Below, in pieces: positions 2,758 through 53,155 of a DNA stretch of 64,000 nucleotides. The stretch comes from a bacterium (GTDB lineage: Bacteria; Patescibacteriota; Patescibacteriia; SG8-24). Within the stretch, counting starts at the first letter, position 1, and every line of letters starts with the position of its first letter. The stretch is taken from assembly GCA_023246195.1 (NCBI GenBank), contig JAHFIW010000002.1, positions 4,259-68,258 on the forward strand, given 5' to 3'. A program made the position numbers and the translations under genes. The notes under the pieces are model-generated. The model had not been told where the DNA came from. It ran no database searches and was given only the letters and a program-made list of their open reading frames with translations.

Positions 2758-4803
2758 TTACAGTCCTGATGCAGTTTTGGCTGCGGCTGCCATCATGGCG
2801 ACGATGAGCAGGGCGGTGATGTTGAGGATCTTGATCATCGGGTTAATGGCGGGGCCGGCGGTGTCCTTGTAGGGGTCTCCGACGGTGTCGCCGGTGACGG
2901 CAGCCTGGTGGGCGAAGGACTTCTTGCCACCGTAGACGCCGGACTCGATGTACTTCTTGGCGTTGTCCCAAGCTGCGCCGCCAGTCGTCATGGAGACAGC
3001 GAGGAAGATGCCGGTGACGATGGCACCGACAAGCATGCCGCCGAGGGCTTCGATGCCGAGCTGTTGCTTGAAGAGGACGGCGACAATGATTGGAGCGCCG
3101 ATGGGGAGCAGCGCAGGGATGACCATTTCGCTGATGGCCGCCTTGGTCACGATATCCACGCATTTTGCGTATTCCGGTTTTGCCGTGCCTTCCATGATGC
3201 CGGGGATTTCACGGAATTGGCGACGGACTTCCTCTACCACGCCAGCTGCGGCGCGGCCGACGGCTTCCATCGCGATGGCGGCAAAGAGGTAGGTAACGAC
3301 GCCTCCGAGGAAAAGGCCGATGAGGACCCTTGGGTTGGACAGGTCGAAAATGGCCGGGTCGCCAAGCTTGAGCAACTCTTCCTTAAAGGAAGCGAAGAGC
3401 ACGATGGAAGCGAGGCCCGCTGAACCGATGGCGTAACCTTTGGTCACGGCCTTGGTGGTGTTGCCGACGGCGTCGAGGGGGTCGGTGATGTTGCGGACGG
3501 ATTCCGGGAGGCCAGCCATTTCGGCGATGCCGCCGGCGTTGTCGGTGATCGGGCCGTAGGCGTCGATGGCGACGATGATGCCGGTAAGCGACAGCATGGA
3601 CATCGAAGCGACGGCCACGCCGTAAATGTCAGCAAGGGAGTAGGCGCCGGCGATTGCTCCGCAGATGAGGAGCACCGGGAGCGCGGTGGAACGCATCGAG
3701 ACGGCAAGACCGGCGATAATGTTGGTGCCGTGACCGGACTGCGACGCGGCGGCGATGCGGCGAACGGGAGCGTACTCCGTCCCCGTGAAATATTCGGTGA
3801 TCACTACCAAGAGTCCAGTGACGGCCAGGCCGATGAGCGAAGCCAGATAGAGATGAAGAACCGAGTAGGAGCCGTTGTCAGCCATGAGCCACTTGGTCAC
3901 CGGCCAGAAAAGGACGGCCGAGACCAGCGAGGCGACGATGAGGCCCTTGTAGAGGGCGTTCATGATGTTCTTGGTGGCGCCGAGGCGAACAGCGAACGAA
4001 CCGGCGATGGAAGCGACGATGGAAACCGCGCCGAGCACCAGCGGATAGACGATGGCGTTCTGATTGCCCTCGAAGGTAAGCGAGCCGAGAAGCATCGCCG
4101 CGACCGCCGTGACCGCATAGGTCTCAAAGAGGTCGGCAGCCATGCCCGCGCAGTCACCGACGTTGTCACCGACGTTGTCGGCTATCACGGCCGGGTTGCG
4201 CGGGTCATCTTCCGGAATACCTGCTTCCACCTTGCCGACGAGGTCGGCACCGACGTCAGCGGCCTTGGTGAAAATGCCTCCGCCCAAGCGAGCGAATACC
4301 GAGATGAGCGATCCGCCGAAGCCAAGACCGACGAGCGCGTCGACGGCACCGGGGTTGCCCTTGGTGAGCGCGTAGAAACCGGAAACGCCAAGCAGTCCGA
4401 GGCCTACCACGAGCATGCCGGTGACCGAACCGCCGCGGAAGGCGACGTTGAGCGCATCAGCCATGCCGTTCTTGGCAGCTTCGGTCGTGCGGATGTTGGC
4501 GCGGACCGACACCTGCATGCCGATGTAGCCGGCAAGTGCGGAGAGCGAGGCTCCCACAAGAAAACCGGCAGCCGTTAAGAAGTTCAACTTCACCCAAAGG
4601 AGGACGAAGATGACGATGGCAACCATACCCGCAGACTTGTTCTGGCGGATGAGGTAAGCCGAAGCGCCTTCCTGAATGGCCTTAGCGATGGCCTTCATCT
4701 TATCGTCGCCTTCTGGTTTTGCCAGCACCCAGCGGATGAGGACTGCGCCGTAAGCGATGGCCGCCAATGCCGCAAGAATCGCGAGGAATAAAGGTGTACC
4801 CAT
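2758..4803 (-). CDS. hppA: Membrane-bound proton/sodium-translocating pyrophosphatase (V-type H+-PPase)
   Basis: ~680 aa polytopic. Hallmark motifs [19 protein letters not shown] and DNVGDNVGD. Start chosen at MGTPLF. Confidence 0.9.
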
Positions 4804-4899
4804 AGTCGAATGAGGTGGCAGCTTGCATGAGCTGCACTCAAGTTTAGTAAATAAAAAATAGCTTTTCAGCAACAATAATAGGAAATTGAGGCTTTTCTG

Positions 4900-4940
4900 T
4901 CAATAAAAAGACCCGACACTTGAAGTGTCGGGTCGACTTG
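4900..4940 (-). terminator. Intrinsic terminator after the HD-domain gene
   Basis: Minus-strand hairpin GACCCGACACTTCAAGTGTCGGGTC followed by TTTTTATT. Confidence 0.45.
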
Positions 4941-4973
4941 GGGAGATTCCCCGCAGCTTCATTCAGAAGAGGT

Positions 4974-5633
4974 TCAGTCGTCGTCTTTGTCGGACTCGGC
5001 TTTGGCCAGCTGCTCTTCGATGTGGATGACCATGTTCTTGCAAGACTCGCGCACCCTCTCCGCGCCTTTGCCGTAGCGCTTGGGAACTTTGGCGACCGTC
5101 AGGTCGAGGACCGCATAGTACTTGCTTACGGTCTCGATGACCTGTTTGCGCTGAAACTCCGGCGGGCTACTGGTCATGGAGCGGAGGTTGTCGAGACGGT
5201 CGCAGGACTTGAGCAGGAGCTCGCGCCAGCTTCCGAACCGCATCAGGTTCTTCACGTAATCCGGCTGGTAGCTACCCTGGCGCGGCGGCACCTTCGTGAC
5301 CATGTTGACGATGTTCGCCACCTTTTCGCCGAAGTAACACTGAATTCGTTCCTTGGTGAGGAATCGGGTGTCTTCCGTCCCGTCGTGCAGGAATGCCGAG
5401 ATGATCAGGTTGACATCGCGGCAGTGTACTTCGTCAAGCAGGATGAGGGCCACGCGACGCGGGTGTTCGAAATATCGCAATGGCTGGTTGGTATCAGGGT
5501 CTTTCTCGTCCTTGCGGGTTTGATGGCGGTGTGAATGTTTGGCCAGGACGTAAGCCAGGTCAATCATCGCCAGATCTTTCGGCGCAAACAGCGGCCTGAT
5601 TCGCTCGTAAAACGTTTCGTACGTTTCTTTCAA
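4974..5633 (-). CDS. Stand-alone HD-domain protein of the RelA/SpoT hydrolase type (putative (p)ppGpp pyrophosphohydrolase)
   Basis: H..H.GQ-like HSHRHQTRKDE, YFEHPRRVALIL and HDGTEDT motifs. No synthetase domain. Probable TTG start at 5633, preceded by AAGGAG. The longer ATG ORF begins at 5672. Confidence 0.65.
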   Translation of the reverse strand: MKETYETFYERIRPLFAPKDLAMIDLAYVLAKHSHRHQTRKDEKDPDTNQPLRYFEHPRRVALILLDEVHCRDVNLIISAFLHDGTEDTRFLTKERIQCYFGEKVANIVNMVTKVPPRQGSYQPDYVKNLMRFGSWRELLLKSCDRLDNLRSMTSSPPEFQRKQVIETVSKYYAVLDLTVAKVPKRYGKGAERVRESCKNMVIHIEEQLAKAESDKDDD

Positions 5634-5883
5634 AGGGCGTCTCCTTTTTATTCCGACAAAAAAACATAGCATAATTTTGCGCGCAAGTCAACGTGCTGAG
5701 GGGTGGCCTGTGCGAAAGATGGTTGACACTACGTGGCGGGGTTGTTACCATTTTTCAGTACATTGAGGGACGGAAGAGAGGTCAAATTTACGCTTAAACT
5801 AGCGTAGAAATAGCTGCTACCATAAGAAAAGTAAGCCTTTTCATATACCTCGAGCCGCCAAAAAAATCGGCATTAAGCTCCTC

Positions 5884-7263
5884 TTGGGAGTCTTCAAAGG
5901 GTTAATGGGCTTGAAAAAGGTCTTAACCCTTTTGCTTTTGATGGTGAAGCGGCCATTTTTTTGGCTTTGTAGAGCGATTTTATACCCTTTGGTGGGGTTT
6001 TTTTACCTGGTATATCGTGTCATTAAGAAGCTGGCCCTCCGCTTATCGGAGTACATGCGTGATCGGGCCATGGGTTTATTGGCTAACCGCTACGCAATTC
6101 ACGCCATTGTGATCGTCTTGGCTTTTGCCGTGACCACTACCAATTTGCACGCTCAGGGAACCGGCACTCAACCCGATGCCAATGCGCCACAAAGCATTCT
6201 GGGCACGCTCACCCAAAATGAGGCGGATGCCGTGGTCATCGAAGAAGCTGGCTCCCAAAATGTGAATTCTTCCGAAGGTGCTGCCTACTTGGGTAGCCAG
6301 GCATTGAGCTCGCACGATTCCGCAGCCCAAGCCGATCAAAATCAGATGGATCCGTCCGCCGTAGACGTAGAGGCTTACGTCGAAGATCCCAGCGAGCTTA
6401 CGCTTTTTTCTCCGACGGCAAATGCCGTTCGCGTGCAGCCCGAAGTCGATGGCGGCAACGCTCCGTCCACTCGCAGCAAGGTTGAATCCTATGTCATTGC
6501 CGACGGTGACTCCCTTGGTTCTATCGCTCGTAAGTTTGGTCTCCGCACAGAAACCCTTTTGGCATCAAACGGACTCACCGTGCGCAGCGTGATTCACCCC
6601 GGCGACACGCTTAAGATCATGCCTGTCGACGGTGTCATTTATAAGGTGAAGTCCGGCGACACTGTCAACCGTATCGCCAATGCCTTCGGTAGCGATCCTG
6701 ACAAGATTATCGAGATGAACGGCTTGGCATCCGGCGCGGGACTGGCTCTTGGTCAGGAGCTCATTCTTCCTGATGGAAAATTGCCCGCTCCGCCGCCGCC
6801 GAAGCGTCCGTCGCGCATCGCAACCAACATAAGGGAGATTTTCGTGACGCCTCCTCCGTCACCTGACCGCGAAGACAGTTCGGATAACATGATTTGGCCA
6901 ACGGCAGTCCGCCGTATTACGCAGTACTTCGGCCATTATCGCGGAGGGTCGCGGCACACCGGTGTCGACATCGCGGGTCCGCAAGGTACGCCGGTGTACG
7001 CTGCCGAGGATGGCGTAGTCGCGCTTGCCGGTTGGAATAACGGCGGTTACGGCAACATGGTTCTCATCAATCACGGCGGCGGCATCTTCACCCGCTACGG
7101 TCACGCGTCCAAGTTGATTGCCAAAGCCGGTGACACCGTCAAGAAAGGCGATGTCATCATGCTCATGGGCACCACGGGAAACTCGACCGGCCCTCACTTG
7201 CACTTCGAGGTCATGACCGGCACTCCGCAACATCGCGTGAACCCGCTTGATTACATCAGATAA
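5884..7263 (+). CDS. LysM-domain M23 family metallopeptidase (cell-wall hydrolase), N-terminal membrane anchor
   Basis: Two LysM-like segments (GDSLGSIARKFG, GDTVNRIANAFG). M23 catalytic motifs HTGVDIA...GYGNMVLINHGGGIFTRYGH...GNSTGPHLHFEV. Confidence 0.85.
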   Translation: MGVFKGLMGLKKVLTLLLLMVKRPFFWLCRAILYPLVGFFYLVYRVIKKLALRLSEYMRDRAMGLLANRYAIHAIVIVLAFAVTTTNLHAQGTGTQPDANAPQSILGTLTQNEADAVVIEEAGSQNVNSSEGAAYLGSQALSSHDSAAQADQNQMDPSAVDVEAYVEDPSELTLFSPTANAVRVQPEVDGGNAPSTRSKVESYVIADGDSLGSIARKFGLRTETLLASNGLTVRSVIHPGDTLKIMPVDGVIYKVKSGDTVNRIANAFGSDPDKIIEMNGLASGAGLALGQELILPDGKLPAPPPPKRPSRIATNIREIFVTPPPSPDREDSSDNMIWPTAVRRITQYFGHYRGGSRHTGVDIAGPQGTPVYAAEDGVVALAGWNNGGYGNMVLINHGGGIFTRYGHASKLIAKAGDTVKKGDVIMLMGTTGNSTGPHLHFEVMTGTPQHRVNPLDYIR

Positions 7264-9422: not shown

Positions 9423-9887
9423 TTATGAATCTGCGGCGTTGACCTGACGCGACGGCTTGGCGAAGCACAACATGCACAGCGCCACGATGATCATGCCGTC
9501 GGCGACGTTGACGGCCGATCGGTTAAAGAAAATGAGGTAGTCCGAGGTGGCGCCGGTATACCAACGGTCCATCAAGTTGGAGTTTGCGCCGAGCAGCACC
9601 ATCCAGTACAAGCCCGCGCGCGTAAAGTCGCTGCGAAAGGCGCGTGCAAATAAAACCGCCAGTAGCACGAAGATGGTGATTGCTGCCGGCCAAAAAATCG
9701 CAGAAGCCAAGGGCAGACTGAACGCAATTCCCGTGTTTCGGAAGTACCAGAAGGCCACAGCCTCGCCGACGAAGTAGGAGTGGCCTCGCAACGACCAATA
9801 CTTGCAGAGGCGGTCGACGACAAAGAGGGCGGTGGCGGTGACGAACCACCCGTTATGAAGGATGGGAAATTTCTTGAGGAGAGTCAT
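9423..9887 (-). CDS. lspA: Lipoprotein signal peptidase (signal peptidase II)
   Basis: ~155 aa, four TM segments. Conserved FRNTGIAF and NVAD boxes of peptidase A8. Start at MTLLKK. Confidence 0.75.
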   Translation of the reverse strand: MTLLKKFPILHNGWFVTATALFVVDRLCKYWSLRGHSYFVGEAVAFWYFRNTGIAFSLPLASAIFWPAAITIFVLLAVLFARAFRSDFTRAGLYWMVLLGANSNLMDRWYTGATSDYLIFFNRSAVNVADGMIIVALCMLCFAKPSRQVNAADS

Positions 9888-9954
9888 TGGATTGTCTGCT
9901 ATCAAAATGCCGACCGTTTTTTCCGGTCGGCATTTCGGCCGGACTTTGGAGAGT

Positions 9955-10326
9955 TTAGAATTCCTGGGTAAAAGACTTCTTGCACTCAATGCAGGAGCTC
10001 GATGCGGGGCGGGCGCGCAGGCGTTTCTCGTCAATCTCCTTGTTGCAGTACTTGCAGATGCCGTAGGTGCCCTTCTTGATGCGCTCTATGGCCTTTTCTA
10101 CGTCGCGCAGCGAAGATTCGATGGTGCGCTCCAACGTGAGGTTCGTACTGAACATGTTCACTTCTTCGGCGTTTTCATCCTCCTTATCGCCCATGTTGGG
10201 AAACTCCACGCTGTAGCTTTCGTTGTTCTTTGGATTTTGCTTGGCAAATTCTGCCAGTTCGCCGCGAAGTTTGGCTTCTTCTTGGGTCAGCAGTCCTTCA
10301 ACCTCCTTGAGAAAATCTTTTTTCAT
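9955..10326 (-). CDS. DksA/TraR family C4-type zinc-finger protein
   Basis: Coiled-coil N-terminus and C-terminal CxxC-17-CxxC (CKYCNKEID...CIECK). Confidence 0.75.
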   Translation of the reverse strand: MKKDFLKEVEGLLTQEEAKLRGELAEFAKQNPKNNESYSVEFPNMGDKEDENAEEVNMFSTNLTLERTIESSLRDVEKAIERIKKGTYGICKYCNKEIDEKRLRARPASSSCIECKKSFTQEF

Positions 10327-10929
10327 AAAAATGTGACCTCGGTGGGTCATTGTTTATGGTCCATTGGAGCCATCCTCGATCAGACACAGGCGAATAATCA
10401 GCCCAAAGGAATGTGACAACAGTATACGACACCCGCCCAAAAAGGCAAATTGTAAGCAAAAAATGCTGAAAGACGGCAATTTTTGAGGAAAAAGAAAATC
10501 GGCACTAGAAGTTTTGGCCAATGAAAGAATTCATGCCTCACTAGTGCCGACAAAGGCCCCTGAGATGTACCCGTTAACGGGTGTAATACCGACATTCCTT
10601 AGGCAGAAATGACCGTAATACACCCGAACGTGTAAGCATGGACAGGGGAGAAAGAACAAAGCCTTCTCTACCATTCCCCGGTAGAGCCTCCTACCCCGAA
10701 GGGCAAAATGGAGGATACCGAATGCCTTTTTGAATTTTTGTTTTTGGTATTCAAGGGTGGCACAAGGATTAGTAAAGAAGAAGGAATCAATCCCGACGGG
10801 GGTTGCGTCAGAAGCAGTTCCTTTTCTGCTTGGTTGTCAAAGATCCTTACCCTCGATGAACTCAGTATACCAGTTTTATGTCCAAGGGTCAATCAGGACA
10901 AGTGCATAAAACACCGCTCAACAAAGCGG

Positions 10930-11020
10930 TGTTTTATAGCTGTGGATAGTCGTGAACATTCATTTTGTTCATTTAGCTACGCGTAAAACCACGCTTATCC
11001 ACAGGTTACTTTCTATATCC
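10930..11020. promoter_or_regulatory. Three DnaA-box-like motifs: TGTGGATAG (10931-10939), TTATCCACA (10996-11004, perfect), TATCCACAG (11013-11021). They overlap the stop and terminator of the 11006..12391 gene.
   Basis: Read directly. One box lies inside the coding 3' end (codons C-G-Y), so the cluster may be partly coincidental. Confidence 0.25.
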
Positions 11021-16221: not shown

Positions 16222-16740
16222 ATGTCGCACCTTACTTCCGATCAGATTGCAGAGCTCATTGCCATCGACAACCGATGTCCCGGTATCCGCAAGGAAGTCC
16301 AGGAGCTGATTTGTCAGCTGACCTCTGGCAGCAAGGTCAAGAATCTTGCGCAGATGGTTGCCCTCGGCAATTACGACTACGTCAACGAGGACATCGTCGA
16401 GAGGAACTTCCCGACGGACCCCGTTCGCTTTACGACAGGGGGGACGAAGGTCTTTCTCCTCAGCCACGAGATGACCACGGCGCGACTCAAAGAGACGATG
16501 GTCGGAAACGGCTGCGAGCCCGGCTTGATCGAGAGTCTCCTCGCCTATGGTGCGGAACATCCTGAGGAGCAGAGGGATCACCCCATCGTCGCACTGGGTT
16601 CCTCCTGGGTGAGCTCCAACGGCCATCGCTACGTCCCGTACTTGTACGGAGGCCGCAGTCAGCGCGGACTGCACCTAGACCGTGGCGGCTCAGAGCGCCG
16701 TTGGGGTACGGATTGCCGGTTCCTCGCCCGTTGCAAGTAA
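16222..16740 (+). CDS. Uncharacterised conserved protein, paralog 1 of a two-member family in this window
   Basis: 172 aa, ATG at 16222 preceded by GAGGAATGAAGG. ~50% identical over the C-terminal ~130 aa to the 51952..52524 product: LAQMVA.G.YD..N.DI.E.NF ... MTTA ... ELLAYGAE.PEEQR..PIVALGSSWV ... RFLAR.K. Gly/Arg-rich tail. Confidence 0.6.
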   Translation: MSHLTSDQIAELIAIDNRCPGIRKEVQELICQLTSGSKVKNLAQMVALGNYDYVNEDIVERNFPTDPVRFTTGGTKVFLLSHEMTTARLKETMVGNGCEPGLIESLLAYGAEHPEEQRDHPIVALGSSWVSSNGHRYVPYLYGGRSQRGLHLDRGGSERRWGTDCRFLARCK

Positions 16741-16784
16741 CCCTCGGACGTTTGGGTTCTTAGTTCTGGCCCTCGGCCCCGTTT

Positions 16785-16820
16785 CCGTCCGCTACTTTGG
16801 TAGTGGACGGAATTTTTTAT
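16785..16820 (+). terminator. Intrinsic terminator of paralog 1
   Basis: Hairpin CCGTCCGCTAC-TTTG-GTAGTGGACGG followed by AATTTTTTAT. Confidence 0.6.
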
Positions 16821-16890
16821 TTGAGACGAAACAGCTTGTGGCTACGGTTGCAGGCGGTCAAAGCTGGGTTCAAACGATTTCCTGAATGAC
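16821..16890 (+). other. Conserved non-coding element, copy 1, immediately 3' of the terminator
   Basis: ~85% identical to 52621..52693: TTGAGACGAAACAGCTTGTGGCTACGGTTGCAGGCGGTCAAAGCTGGGTT...GAATGACG. A 1-nt indel relative to copy 2 argues against coding. Confidence 0.45.
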
Positions 16891-16949
16891 GTACGATGCC
16901 TCGCGTTCCGCTTCCGCAGGTGCGTCGCATAACGTATACTACTAACCGT

Positions 16950-17897
16950 ATGGCCAAATCATCCGAGCTCATCACCGATTATCTCAGTTATCTCGAGGTC
17001 GAGCGCAACCGTTCCGAACGGACGGTCAAGAATTATGATTTTTATCTGCGCCGCTTCTTTGCCTGGGCCAAAGACGCCCAACCTGAAGCAATCACCCTCG
17101 ACATGGTCCGTGCCTATCGCATCTGGCTCAACCGCTACAAGAATGATCAGGGCCAAGGAATGAAGAAGAATACCCAAAATTATCACCTCATCGCCCTTCG
17201 TTCTTTTCTCAAGTACCTGGCAAAACGCGACATTAAGACGCTGGCTCCCGAAAAAATCGAGTTGGCACGCATGCCCGAGCGCTCCGTGGAGTTTTTGGAC
17301 GCTCCGGAGCTGGAACGCTTGCTGGCGGCACCTCTTGATGGGGCAAAGGCGGTCGACAATAACGTCTCCATTTTGCAGCTTCGCGACAAGGCCATCCTCG
17401 AGATGCTCTTTTCAACCGGTTTGCGCGTGTCGGAATTGGCCGGCCTCAACCGAAAAATCATCAATTTGCAGCGCGAGGAGTTCACCGTTCGCGGAAAAGG
17501 GGACAAGCCGCGCGTGGTGTTCATGTCTCAGCAGGCCAGATATTGGCTTAAGCAGTACCTTGACCGCAGACGAGACGTGGAACCGGCGATCTTCGTCAGC
17601 CACGACCGAGCGGCTAACGGACGCGACACTGTCGGCGGGCTCACCCCGCGCAGCATTCAGCGCACGGTCGAGCACTATGCTACGGCCGCTGGCATCACCA
17701 AACGCATCACTCCCCACACTGTCCGCCATACCTTCGCTACCGATTTATTGCGCAATGGAGCCGATATTCGCAGCGTTCAGACTCTTTTGGGGCACGCCTC
17801 CATCACTACCACCCAAATCTACACGCATATCACTGACGAACGTTTGAGGGAGGTATATAACAGCTTCCATGGCAAGCGGCGGAAAAAAGACGGATAG
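16950..17897 (+). CDS. xerC: Tyrosine recombinase, XerC/XerD family
   Basis: N-terminal SAM-like core-binding domain (ITDYLSYLEVERNRSERTVKNY). C-terminal catalytic R..H.R..Y (RHTFATDLL...LGHASITTTQIYTHI). An alternative upstream start lies at 16896. Confidence 0.85.
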   Translation: MAKSSELITDYLSYLEVERNRSERTVKNYDFYLRRFFAWAKDAQPEAITLDMVRAYRIWLNRYKNDQGQGMKKNTQNYHLIALRSFLKYLAKRDIKTLAPEKIELARMPERSVEFLDAPELERLLAAPLDGAKAVDNNVSILQLRDKAILEMLFSTGLRVSELAGLNRKIINLQREEFTVRGKGDKPRVVFMSQQARYWLKQYLDRRRDVEPAIFVSHDRAANGRDTVGGLTPRSIQRTVEHYATAAGITKRITPHTVRHTFATDLLRNGADIRSVQTLLGHASITTTQIYTHITDERLREVYNSFHGKRRKKDG

Positions 17898-51491: not shown

Positions 51492-51837
51492 TTAAATGGG
51501 CCAACGTAAAAACGCCAGACATGCTGGCGTTTTAACGATGGCGGTGGAGTCCTATGGCTTGTAGGCTTCAAAAGCGCGTCAATTTTCTCAATGTAAGCCG
51601 GTTTCGTCATAGGTCTGACTAGGTTCAATTGATAGCTATTTTACCCTGAACCACTCGTTTACGCGAACAAGTTATCCCTGTCAAAAAGAGGCCCGAGGGT
51701 AGCCCTAGCCTTCTTAAGGCCGAAAATCCGGCCAGTGTCCCATGTCGCAGTTTTTTGCGCCCCGCTCAGCAAAACGGCACATTTACGCCCACCCCTCGGA
51801 ACTGTCTCATTTTGCTTTTCACCCTCTGTCGTTCATC

Positions 51838-51885
51838 GTTGAAAAAAACGCCAAAATATGGTAATCTAGGCTCACGTAAGTTCGT
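51838..51885 (+). promoter_or_regulatory. Putative promoter of paralog 2 (-35 TTGAAA, -10 TAATCT) with conserved TSS motif AGGCTCACGTAAG shared with paralog 1 (TATAAGGCTGTCACGTGAG at ~16160-16180)
   Basis: Read directly. Motif conservation between the two module copies. Confidence 0.4.
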
Positions 51886-51951
51886 CAGATGGCAAGTCCC
51901 GTGTCCCGCCATGGTGGCGGGAAAATGGAATGGCCGAGACAGGAGAGAGTC

Positions 51952-52524
51952 ATGGGAAAGAATCGTGAGTTCGTCAGCGCATCCGGCACGGCATACGACG
52001 TCGTGCAGAAGCTCGCCCAGGCCGTCTACGCCCGGGGCGGGGACGACGACAGCATCCGCCGGGTCATCTCCGACGAGGCGCTCCGAGGCAAGCTGGCCGA
52101 CCTCATCGTCGGCACTGCGGCCAGGACCCTCGCCCAGATGGTCGCCGCCGGCCGCTACGACTGGGCCAACTCGGACATCAACGAGAAGAACTTCAAAGTC
52201 AGCGCCGAGCGGTTCACCGCCGACGGCCTCGAGGCCATCCATTTCGGCAAGGTGATGACCACCGCACAGGTCGAGATCAATCTCGACCGTCGCGGCCTGC
52301 GTTCGGCCTGGATCGAGGAACTCCTCGCCTACGGCGCGGAGAACCCCGAGGAACAGCGCAAGTTCCCGATCGTCGCCCTCGGTTCCTCATGGGTGAATCC
52401 CGGTGGCGGCCGCGGCGTCCTGGACCTGTGCGGGGGCGGCGGTCGGCGCGGGCTGAGCCTGCGCTGGGGCGGCCCCGGGTGCCGCTGGGACGCGGACTAC
52501 CGCTTCCTCGCCCGTCGCAAGTAG
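51952..52524 (+). CDS. Uncharacterised conserved protein, paralog 2 (very GC-rich copy)
   Basis: 190 aa, ATG at 51952 preceded by AGGAGAGAG. ~50% identical to the 16222..16740 product. ~70-75% GC versus ~57% for the window. Confidence 0.6.
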   Translation: MGKNREFVSASGTAYDVVQKLAQAVYARGGDDDSIRRVISDEALRGKLADLIVGTAARTLAQMVAAGRYDWANSDINEKNFKVSAERFTADGLEAIHFGKVMTTAQVEINLDRRGLRSAWIEELLAYGAENPEEQRKFPIVALGSSWVNPGGGRGVLDLCGGGGRRGLSLRWGGPGCRWDADYRFLARRK

Positions 52525-52568
52525 CCCTGGGGCGCTTGGGCGCTTAGTCCTGGCCCTTTGGCCCTTAT

Positions 52569-52604
52569 CTGGCCGCGAACTCAGTTCGCGGCCAGACTTT
52601 TTTA
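52569..52604 (+). terminator. Intrinsic terminator of paralog 2
   Basis: CTGGCCGCGAAC-TCAG-TTCGCGGCCAG + ACTTTTTTTAT. Same position as copy 1's hairpin but a different sequence (compensatory). Confidence 0.6.
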
Positions 52605-52620
52605 TGCTAAAATCGAAACG

Positions 52621-52693
52621 GATGAGACGAAACAGCCTGCGGCCACGGTTTCAGGCGGTCAAATCTGGGCCCGGGCGATCTTCCGGAATGACG
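52621..52693 (+). other. Conserved non-coding element, copy 2
   Basis: GATGAGACGAAACAGCCTGCGGCCACGGTTTCAGGCGGTCAAATCTGGGCC...GGAATGACG, homologous to 16821..16890. Preceded by a partial internal duplication AATCGAAACG. Confidence 0.45.
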
Positions 52694-52752
52694 CGCGACA
52701 CGTCGCGTGCCAGCGCGAATTCGTCGGAGGCGGCAGGTTCTGGAAGGCGATG

Positions 52753-52950
52753 GGCGGCGACGCGGATCATGCTGGCCCCACGACGACTTCCTCCGACACC
52801 CGCGCCTACGTGAAGTACCTTCTGCGGGAGGGGAGCGCCACCGAGAAGCGGGAACTGCTCGCCAACCTGAAGAGCAGGCTGACGTACAAGGACAAGACGG
52901 TGACGCTGCTGGATGCCAGCCCCGTCGCGATCATCTCGGCCTCTTCGTAG
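52753..52950 (+). CDS. Possible small GC-rich ORF (66 aa) downstream of the conserved element
   Basis: GGAAGG-N5-ATG. GC3-rich codons. Ends 15 nt before a strong terminator. The longer 52558 ORF overlaps the non-coding element and is rejected. Confidence 0.3.
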   Translation, partial: GGDADHAGPTTTSSDTRAYVKYLLREGSATEKRELLANLKSRLTYKDKTVTLLDASPVAIISASS

Positions 52951-52965
52951 AGCACCGCAGGAACA

Positions 52966-52995
52966 ACAAAACGCCCCGCGCAGGGGCGTTTTGTT
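52966..52995 (+). terminator. Intrinsic terminator
   Basis: AAAACGCCCCGCGCAGGGGCGTTTTGTTTT. Confidence 0.5.
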
Positions 52996-53065
52996 TTGGC
53001 GACACGTTCCTATCTGCTTGCTCGCGCGCCCAAAGGGTACGCGGGTTGCCGATAAGAAATTGTCG

Positions 53066-53155
53066 TGGCGGAGAGGGTGGGAGTCGAACCCACGTTACCC
53101 TTGCGGGTAAATCAGATTTCGAGTCTGACGCGTTCGACCACTCTGCCACCTCTCC
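53066..53155 (-). tRNA. tRNA-Ser (anticodon CGA), long variable arm, CCA encoded
   Basis: Reverse complement GGAGAGGTGGCAGAGTGGTCGAACGCGTCAGACTCGAAATCTGA...GGGTTCGACTCCCACCCTCTCCGCCA folds as a class II tRNA. Confidence 0.9.

Follow-up and report, generated by a model that had tools for sequence, protein, structure and literature searches.

Organization of the tRNA-Ser(CGA) islet

The subject of this work is a 64,000-nt stretch (hereafter the window) of contig JAHFIW010000002.1 from a bacterium of the Patescibacteriota (assembly GCA_023246195.1), and in particular a 1.5-kb islet within it that abuts the 3' end of a tRNA-Ser(CGA) gene, between the genes for a GDPD protein and a Wzy protein. 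The islet consists of a protein gene, a conserved non-coding stretch, a small open reading frame (ORF) and a terminator, in the layout described by a first-pass annotation made from the sequence alone. A related module (copy 1) lies elsewhere in the window, and the islet gene and its surroundings are referred to as copy 2. Two features escaped the first-pass annotation: copy 2 is the target protein gene of a diversity-generating retroelement (DGR) of Patescibacteria, and the small ORF is probably the remnant of an integrase. Coordinates are collected in Table 1.

The islet is absent from the same site in relatives

In three relatives, L084 (from GCA_964491475.1), L085 and L086, whose Wzy proteins are 77–78% identical to that of the window, the GDPD stop codon, the GDPD terminator and the 3' end of tRNA-Ser(CGA) are contiguous. 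The gap between the GDPD and Wzy genes is 232 nt in these relatives as compared with 1,779 nt in the window, and no gene of the target family lies between them. In the orientation of the window, the empty site reads '...AAAAACGCCAGGCGGGCTGGCGTTCTTGCGA|TGGCGGAGAGGGTGGGAGTC...', whereas the window reads '...AAAAACGCCAGACATGCTGGCGTTTTAACGA|TGGCGGTGGAGTCCTATGG...' at the left junction and '...AAATTGTCG|TGGCGGAGAGGGTGGGAGTC...' at the right. After the homologous GDPD terminator, the tRNA-Ser 3' end of the relatives begins exactly at the left-junction position. Comparison of the empty-site and window junctions therefore defines the extra DNA as 1,525 bp, 51541–53065 (equivalently 51547–53071), with 6 nt of the encoded tRNA-Ser 3' end directly repeated at its two boundaries. 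At the left junction TGGCGG is followed by TGGAGTC, a gapped match to TGGGAGTC of the tRNA-Ser gene; through this gapped TGG-AGTC continuation the repeat extends beyond its six exact nucleotides, with ~13–17 positions matching.

These empty sites bear out the earlier proposal that DNA was inserted at the 3' side of tRNA-Ser. The islet was also said to end ~70 bp from this tRNA, which is on the opposite strand, and its terminator hairpin does stop at that distance. Similarly, the degenerate TGGCGG..GGAGTC previously noted near 51.5 kb exists and lies exactly at the left junction, although its extension into a longer repeat did not prove significant (see below). The 3' end of tRNA-Ser(CGA) is polymorphic for the presence of the islet, by insertion or by excision, and the islet behaves as a mobile unit whichever the polarity. 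Between the window and L001, which is from the same strain, position 53097 of tRNA-Ser differs (A versus G), one of only five differences.

The islet gene belongs to a family of DGR targets

Eighty homologous loci were collected for comparison of the gene family. The terminal ~140 nt of the gene are found again ~330 nt downstream in more than 20 of these loci, with mismatches almost confined to adenines of the downstream copy (21 of 21 mismatches in L006, 23 of 23 in L045 and 21 of 22 in L027). A downstream repeat mismatched in this way is the signature of the template repeat (TR) and variable region (VR) of DGRs. All 13 inspected loci whose sequence reaches past the TR have an ORF of ~330 aa with a Y/F-x-DD motif after it, and in five of the 14 loci inspected (L006, L021, L032, L035 and L070) an ORF of 138–235 aa is found on the other strand, in or around the gap between the TR and the reverse transcriptase (RT) gene. 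In the complete cassettes the order is target, TR, (Avd on the opposite strand), RT, with adenine-specific differences between TR and VR, and the targets of such cassettes (L004, L006, L015, L016 and others) belong to the same protein family as the two targets of the window. We conclude that the islet gene, 'paralog 2' of the first-pass annotation, encodes a target protein of the Patescibacteria DGR type.

The variable protein has a C-type-lectin/FGE-like fold, with the VR at its C-terminal end. The VR signature is present in the two window copies in indirect form. Of the 34 alignment columns that hold an A in the family TRs, copy 2 has G in 19, A in nine, C in five and T in one; copies 1 and 2 disagree in 16 of the 34 as compared with 22 of 97 non-A columns (Fisher p = 0.009). 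The 3'-terminal 21 nt of the VR, CGCTTCCTCGCCCGTCGCAAG, are identical to both the VR and the TR of the complete DGR in L095, a metagenome contig of 37% GC. This GC-rich VR 3' end resembles by its sequence an initiation of mutagenic homing (IMH) element, and a 13-bp hairpin follows 43 nt past the stop codon. Neither paralog nor the small ORF had a match in Pfam, PHROGs or NCBIfam, and a sequence-profile search of the PDB gave chance-level matches only.

Upstream of the gene, a consensus scan of 51554–51951 found no sigma-70 promoter. Hairpins with an A/GUGGU loop and other stems, identified by eye, occur upstream of homologs in L003 (~3990–4010) and L002 (~2805–2822); the stems of these 5' untranslated region (UTR) hairpins vary while pairing is kept (CCCGCC/GGCGGG, UGCCC/GGGCA, UCCC/GGGA).

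Table 1. Positions of the islet features and of the copy 1 module in the window.
Feature	Position	Strand	Description	Fold z
Left junction	51541-51553		TGGCGG at 51541-51546, an exact copy of the first 6 nt of the tRNA-Ser 3' end (+ strand)	
Spacer and 5' region of the islet	51554-51951	+	~50% GC	
5'-UTR hairpin	51904-51922		Stem CCCGCC/GGCGGG, loop AUGGU	-2.3
DGR variable (target) protein gene	51952-52524	+	190 aa; helical N-terminal part, C-terminal C-type-lectin-like domain ending RFLARRK	
Variable region (VR)	52385-52524	+	77% GC, rich in GGC glycine codons	
~8-nt periodic repeats	52525-52567	+	NNNCTTGG-like; directly past the stop codon	
Post-VR hairpin	52568-52605	+	13 bp, GC-rich, with T tract; of the kind usual in DGR targets; also an intrinsic terminator	-4.3
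-10-like box of predicted DGR RNA promoter	52603-52613	+	TATGCTAAAAT; aligns with TATGCTATAAT-type boxes	
Truncated 5' domain of DGR-associated RNA	52620-52723	+	Hairpin 1 at 52635-52656, hairpin 2 at 52688-52712	
Putative C-terminal remnant of a large serine recombinase	52732-52950	+	Called ORF 52750-52950, 66 aa; GC at third codon positions (GC3) 0.89	
Hairpin, possible two-way terminator	52965-52995		13 bp, A run on one side and T run on the other; for the small ORF and tRNA-Ser	-4.8
Right junction	53066-53071		TGGCGG read on the + strand, the tRNA-Ser 3' end	
tRNA-Ser(CGA)	53066-53155	minus	3' end faces the islet	
Copy 1 module	16222-16905	+	Between rpsO and a XerC/D-type recombinase gene	
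Copy 1 target gene	16222-16740	+	172 aa, 59.3% GC	
Copy 1 RNA remnant	16822-16905	+	More decayed; only hairpin 1 clear	

Repeats, a hairpin and an RNA stub follow the gene

The periodic repeats past the stop codon are a property of the family. Over ~56 nt post-stop in most of L002–L083, self-identity was 0.38 at lag 8 and 0.34 at lag 16, as compared with 0.25 in controls, and TTGG-like 4-mers occurred 3.8 times per 56 nt as compared with 1.15 in controls. The copy 1 counterpart of the NNNCTTGG-like repeats lies at 16741–16782. The hairpin that follows has an equivalent in copy 1 (16783–16812), in the same place and with pairing kept but with another sequence. The TATGCTATAAT-type boxes with which the predicted promoter box of copy 2 aligns precede the conserved RNA in TR-bearing loci; in copy 1 the box is deleted.

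Intact cassettes have an RNA of ~280 nt that runs into the TR, of which the window keeps the first ~100 nt. A covariance model built from 14 TR-bearing loci of other genomes only matched 52620–52742 with 43.5 bits (E = 3.8e-07), at model positions 1 to ~103, the rest being missing; the RNA remnant of copy 1 scored 13.8 bits (E = 0.63) with the same model. RNAalifold predicted two hairpins, with compensatory changes in 15 of 18 predicted pairs. In L004–L070 (for example at 3700–3932 of L007 and 1340–1613 of L016), the ~280-nt RNA lies between the target hairpin and the TR; it carries a TATGCTATAAT box of its own, a AAAAAUGAAAAUACUUGGU motif and two covarying hairpins whose loops are of the CGGYYACGGCUU type. 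A search of the window and 20 loci with Rfam at the gathering score returned tRNAs only, and at E <= 1 nothing was found over the conserved RNA in three loci. By eye, none of hammerhead and other ribozymes, riboswitches, tmRNA, RNase P, signal recognition particle RNA, 6S RNA and rRNA leaders fits. A small conserved ORF was ruled out as an explanation of the post-terminator stretch by a 1-nt indel and non-periodic substitutions.

The cassette is truncated

No TR, RT gene, Avd gene or third copy of the family is present in the 64-kb window. The window and its flanks were searched by tblastn with eight family RTs and four Avd-like proteins, the latter being four of the five opposite-strand ORFs described above, taken as candidates; nor was a TR, RT, Avd or family copy found in ~5.4 kb of flanking sequence supplied by shorter contigs of the same sample (4.8 kb on the right, ~0.57 kb on the left), so that the negatives on TR, RT and Avd cover ~69 kb of the 74.8-kb contig. 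An exact 21-mer search of JGI metagenomes for the strain's own TR or RT returned unrelated DGRs only. The cassette of the window is truncated, lacking both TR and RT. The variable-protein gene would now be a frozen orphan, possibly still expressed.

The small ORF is probably a recombinase remnant

An exhaustive phmmer search with the small GC-rich ORF gave 113 matches at E <= 1e-3 (best 3e-10) to a C-terminal motif of ~40 aa, IRxYAKYLLKEGSxxEKRELLxNLKSRLxYKDKxxTL. A word-indexed protein search with this tail returned the query itself and one other match only. Twenty of the matches, 19 of at least 120 aa and one of 115 aa, were scanned in Pfam. Recombinase and/or Zn_ribbon_recom domains lie upstream of the motif in four of the 20, and the motif therefore appears to be the tail of large serine recombinases. 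The islet ORF itself, at 66 aa, has no catalytic domain and no Pfam match, and is a fragment rather than a functional member of any such family. We consider it probably an integrase remnant, judging by this tail similarity. Similarity to the recombinases starts at ~52732, a few bases past the end of RNA homology at ~52723; ~73 recombinase codons remain, the last of them 115 nt from the tRNA junction. The abutment of RNA and recombinase sequence at ~52723–52732 may mark a deletion joint.

Four other scanned matches have truncated host domains fused to the tail; unrelated domains of this kind (radical SAM, HMA, Ham1 and NUDIX) precede it in P0241, P0259, P0263 and P0297. Every recombinase-bearing match is N-terminally truncated, which may mean that the attachment site lies within the recombinase gene itself, or that deletions recur.

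Copies 1 and 2 probably have separate histories

Copy 1 sits in a conserved position. Members of the family adjacent to rpsO are found also in L003, whose rpsO and NYN proteins are 80% and 72% identical to those of the window, and in L007, near xerC and rpsO. The L007 cassette (2929–6052) has a target gene, the RNA and a TR, but in place of an adjacent RT a XerC/D-like gene and rpsO come next; only 18 of its 33 TR/VR mismatches are at adenines, which suggests a decaying cassette, in the same rpsO/xerC neighbourhood as copy 1.

The two copies of the window are alike in module layout, and over a stretch of 404 nt, which extends through the non-coding part, their DNA is 70.5% identical, while their N-terminal domains are unrelated. 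Outside the VR, the domain of copy 2 shares 71% identity with P0007, which is encoded in a 61% GC locus of another organism, as compared with 52% with copy 1. The better reading of these identities is therefore that copy 2 was acquired separately, in line with that part of the first-pass annotation which had proposed an independent acquisition of the module.

The GC content of the islet is largely a family trait

The first-pass annotation had also proposed that the module came from a high-GC donor, on the strength of 60-nt windows of ~70–75% GC in 51952–52950 and of ~40% in the 350 bp upstream. Both contrasts were overdrawn. The stretch 51952–52950 has 66.3% GC, its 60-nt windows averaging 66.8% (range 47–87%) with 35% of them reaching 70%, and the spacer 51540–51880 measures 48.7% (60-nt windows 37–62%). 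Copy 1 does have host-like GC, as stated there (59.3% as compared with 57.8% for the window). Of the compositional measures that had been suggested as checks, GC and GC3 set the target ORF apart, while the tetranucleotide deviation of the islet, given below, does not. The ORF has 68.6% GC as compared with 57.8% for the whole window, and the richest 573-nt stretch in the 64 kb starts at 51971 (70.0% GC, about +3 standard deviations). Its GC3 of 0.86–0.89 is the highest among 58 ORFs (mean 0.70, standard deviation 0.08, next 0.81); with 0.89 in both islet ORFs, the host maximum of 0.81 is exceeded.

Much of this is characteristic of the family. Averaged over 78 loci, the 3'-terminal 400 nt of the gene exceed the host locus around them by 12.4 GC points (standard deviation 7.6), and the VR does so by 17 points. 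By the first measure the excess of copy 2, +11.2, is typical, that of copy 1 being +3.4. The 77–83% GC peak of the islet, at 52385–52524, is the VR, where template adenines that were changed have mostly become G: family cognate VRs have, at template-A positions, A 310 times, G 265, T 112 and C 87. The GC excess of the islet is thus largely a family trait, extreme in the VR. A second source of it is probably a somewhat GC-richer donor. The sole independent support for such a source is that GC3 reaches 0.89 both in the recombinase remnant and, outside the VR, in the copy 2 ORF, where GC is 65.8%. With the excess of copy 2 so close to the family average, a high-GC donor for the islet is plausible but unproven. 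GC-rich islets around these genes arise partly from the biology of the family, through adenine loss in the VR and GC-rich cis elements, so that a foreign donor can be argued only weakly from GC by itself; even DNA of 37% GC (L095) has the 21-mer with which the VR of copy 2 ends. Composition is not the best evidence for the islet; the empty-site comparison is stronger.

The strongest outlier of the window in tetranucleotide composition and GC is at 9500–11000 (46.9% GC at 10001–11000). Within it, 10400–11005 comprises ~600 nt without a long ORF or Rfam match, adjoining ORFs that by eye are signal-peptidase-II-like and DksA/TraR-like.

Origin of the islet

Taken together, 51541–53065 is fairly likely to be the decayed remnant of an integrative element that occupied the 3' end of tRNA-Ser(CGA) and carried a Patescibacteria-type DGR as cargo. 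In its intact state this cargo would have comprised, in order, the variable-protein gene with its 3' VR, the octamer repeats, the GC-rich hairpin, a promoter and the ~280-nt RNA running into the TR, in some cases an opposite-strand Avd-like gene, and the RT gene. The RT would copy the TR RNA with errors at adenines, the cDNA would replace the VR, and the replacement would diversify the ligand-binding face of the C-type-lectin-fold protein. The element would have entered the chromosome at the tRNA 3' end, integration possibly being carried out by the serine recombinase, and an internal deletion, perhaps a single one, would then have taken out the remainder of the RNA together with the TR, Avd, the RT and the greater part of the integrase. 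What is left is the variable-protein gene with its hairpin, followed by the box of the RNA promoter and by RNA hairpins 1 and 2.

Several observations weigh against this reconstruction. The 3' ends of tRNA genes are the classic targets of tyrosine integrases rather than of serine integrases, although serine recombinases need no long repeat. A longer att-like repeat is not significant (17% of random windows score equally in a generic alignment test); weak alone, the long match sits exactly where the independent empty-site comparison places the junction. The assignment of the small ORF rests on a tail of ~40 aa, most of its matches being short ORFs and none a full-length recombinase. The tetranucleotide deviation of the whole 1.5-kb islet is ordinary (rank 35 of 250, z = 1.0) and, after normalization for GC, reaches rank 14 (z = 1.75), so that the islet is no significant outlier. 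The window, L084 and L086 are near-equidistant (Wzy 77–80%), the L084–L086 pair being slightly closer (80%), and one excision in the common ancestor of L084 and L086 is as parsimonious as one insertion in the window. Finally, similarity to the RNA stops at about the same point, just past hairpin 2, in copy 1 (16905–16950), copy 2 (52723–52732) and L003 (~4915), a shared end point that would be unexpected from independent random deletions. There is a slight chance that the two-hairpin stub beside orphan targets is a functional unit, for example for the docking of a remote RT–Avd complex, or that its end point is a recombinase attachment hot spot at which TR–Avd–RT back-ends are swapped or lost.

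The equal parsimony of loss and gain raises the alternative that the block was ancestral at tRNA-Ser and was cleanly excised in the lineage to L084/L085 and L086. The closer relationship of L084 and L086 to each other than to the window (80% as compared with 77–78%) would accommodate this, as would the junction repeat, which would permit precise excision, and the deeper relatives L087, L090 and L091, in which synteny is rearranged, do not fix the polarity of the event. We nevertheless think it unlikely, in view of the GC3 of both islet ORFs, above that of every host ORF, the nearest relative of the gene being in another organism, and the recombinase remnant at the junction; moreover, a precise loss that restores the tRNA itself implies a mobile element, which would change the timing but not the nature of the block. 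It is quite unlikely that the block arrived by microhomology-mediated illegitimate insertion, with the tRNA adjacency coincidental and the recombinase tail unrelated debris. An exact repeat of just 6 nt, the lack of significance of the longer match, the absence of an intact integrase and the N-terminal truncation of all recombinase-bearing tail matches are compatible with such an event, whereas a junction exactly on the encoded 3' end of an intact tRNA is typical of integrative elements and rare by chance, and the recombinase remnant is only 115 nt from it.

The remaining alternatives concern the gene rather than its site. Copy 2 might be an active remote target, its VR rewritten by a DGR elsewhere in the genome, with the hairpin and RNA stub retained for recognition. 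The ORF, the post-VR hairpin and the conserved VR 3' end are all intact, the 21-mer CGCTTCCTCGCCCGTCGCAAG is common to the VR and TR of the complete L095 DGR, the VR has the family's G-rich pattern at template-adenine columns, and remote DGR targets are known (PMC8144416). The probability of this alternative is nevertheless low, given that no TR or RT was found in ~69 kb of the contig and that the VRs are identical in two assemblies of the strain (five mismatches in 7,292 nt, none in the gene); furthermore, the two copies differ at 23% of non-adenine VR columns, so that one TR cannot serve both. Highly improbable is an origin of copy 2 as an intragenomic duplicate of copy 1, its GC raised later by adenine mutagenesis or biased repair without any transfer. 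VR mutagenesis does raise GC, and the layout and 404-nt stretch are common to both copies, but the non-VR domain of copy 2 is closer to P0007 (71%) than to copy 1 (52%), the N-terminal domains are unrelated, the part of the ORF outside the VR is GC-rich as well (65.8%, GC3 0.89), and the block, which has no counterpart in the sister genomes, contains a recombinase remnant.

Relation to known systems and significance

The islet combines features of several known systems. Like tRNA-associated islands, it lies exactly at the 3' end of an intact tRNA gene and has empty sites in relatives; it may also share with them a short tRNA-end repeat at the far junction, an atypical codon composition and a putative recombinase remnant by the junction. 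Unlike them, it is only 1.5 kb long, its repeat is exact over 6 nt and otherwise decayed, the remnant is of serine rather than tyrosine type, and there are no other mobility genes. Multiple remote or orphan DGR targets have been reported in Legionella and Treponema genomes, and the islet resembles these in having a VR-bearing gene apart from any RT; it is unlike them in having no known cognate TR and in having a stub of the cassette RNA beside the gene. Because of this stub, truncation of a once-complete cassette is favoured over a dispersed target. Also among the closest known systems are the DGR variable proteins of C-type-lectin fold, Mtd of Bordetella phage, TvpA of Treponema and AvpA of archaea.

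Among DGRs of Patescibacteria, a restricted clade ('DGR clade 2') has targets without recognisable domains (Roux et al., 2021; PMC8144416), and architecture B3 predominates in the candidate phyla radiation (CPR, that is, Patescibacteria) (Wu et al., 2018; PMC5758913). The complete homologous cassettes have the arrangement that these two papers describe as typical of CPR DGRs. The window targets are like those of clade 2/B3 in their family membership and in having a C-terminal VR in a C-type-lectin-like fold, a hairpin after the VR and no recognisable Pfam domain. The window copies differ from such DGRs in having no TR, RT or Avd within ~69 kb, in retaining just the first ~100 nt of the pre-TR RNA and, for one copy, in lying in a tRNA-associated islet.

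According to published surveys, there is next to no knowledge of DGR mobility in Patescibacteria (PMC5758913). DGRs and tRNA-associated integrative elements are already known kinds of element; what the islet adds is documented mobility and decay of a CPR DGR, together with an RNA and repeats that are uncatalogued. DGR specialists may value these by-products more, namely the covarying RNA of ~280 nt upstream of the TR, which is absent from Rfam, and the 8-nt periodic repeats after the VR. If the two-hairpin stub is functional, an RT–Avd complex encoded elsewhere could act on remote targets. The islet is a junction-resolved case of a DGR target cassette on an integrative element in Patescibacteria, at the strength given above for that origin, and shows the decay of DGR cassettes into orphan variable-protein genes.

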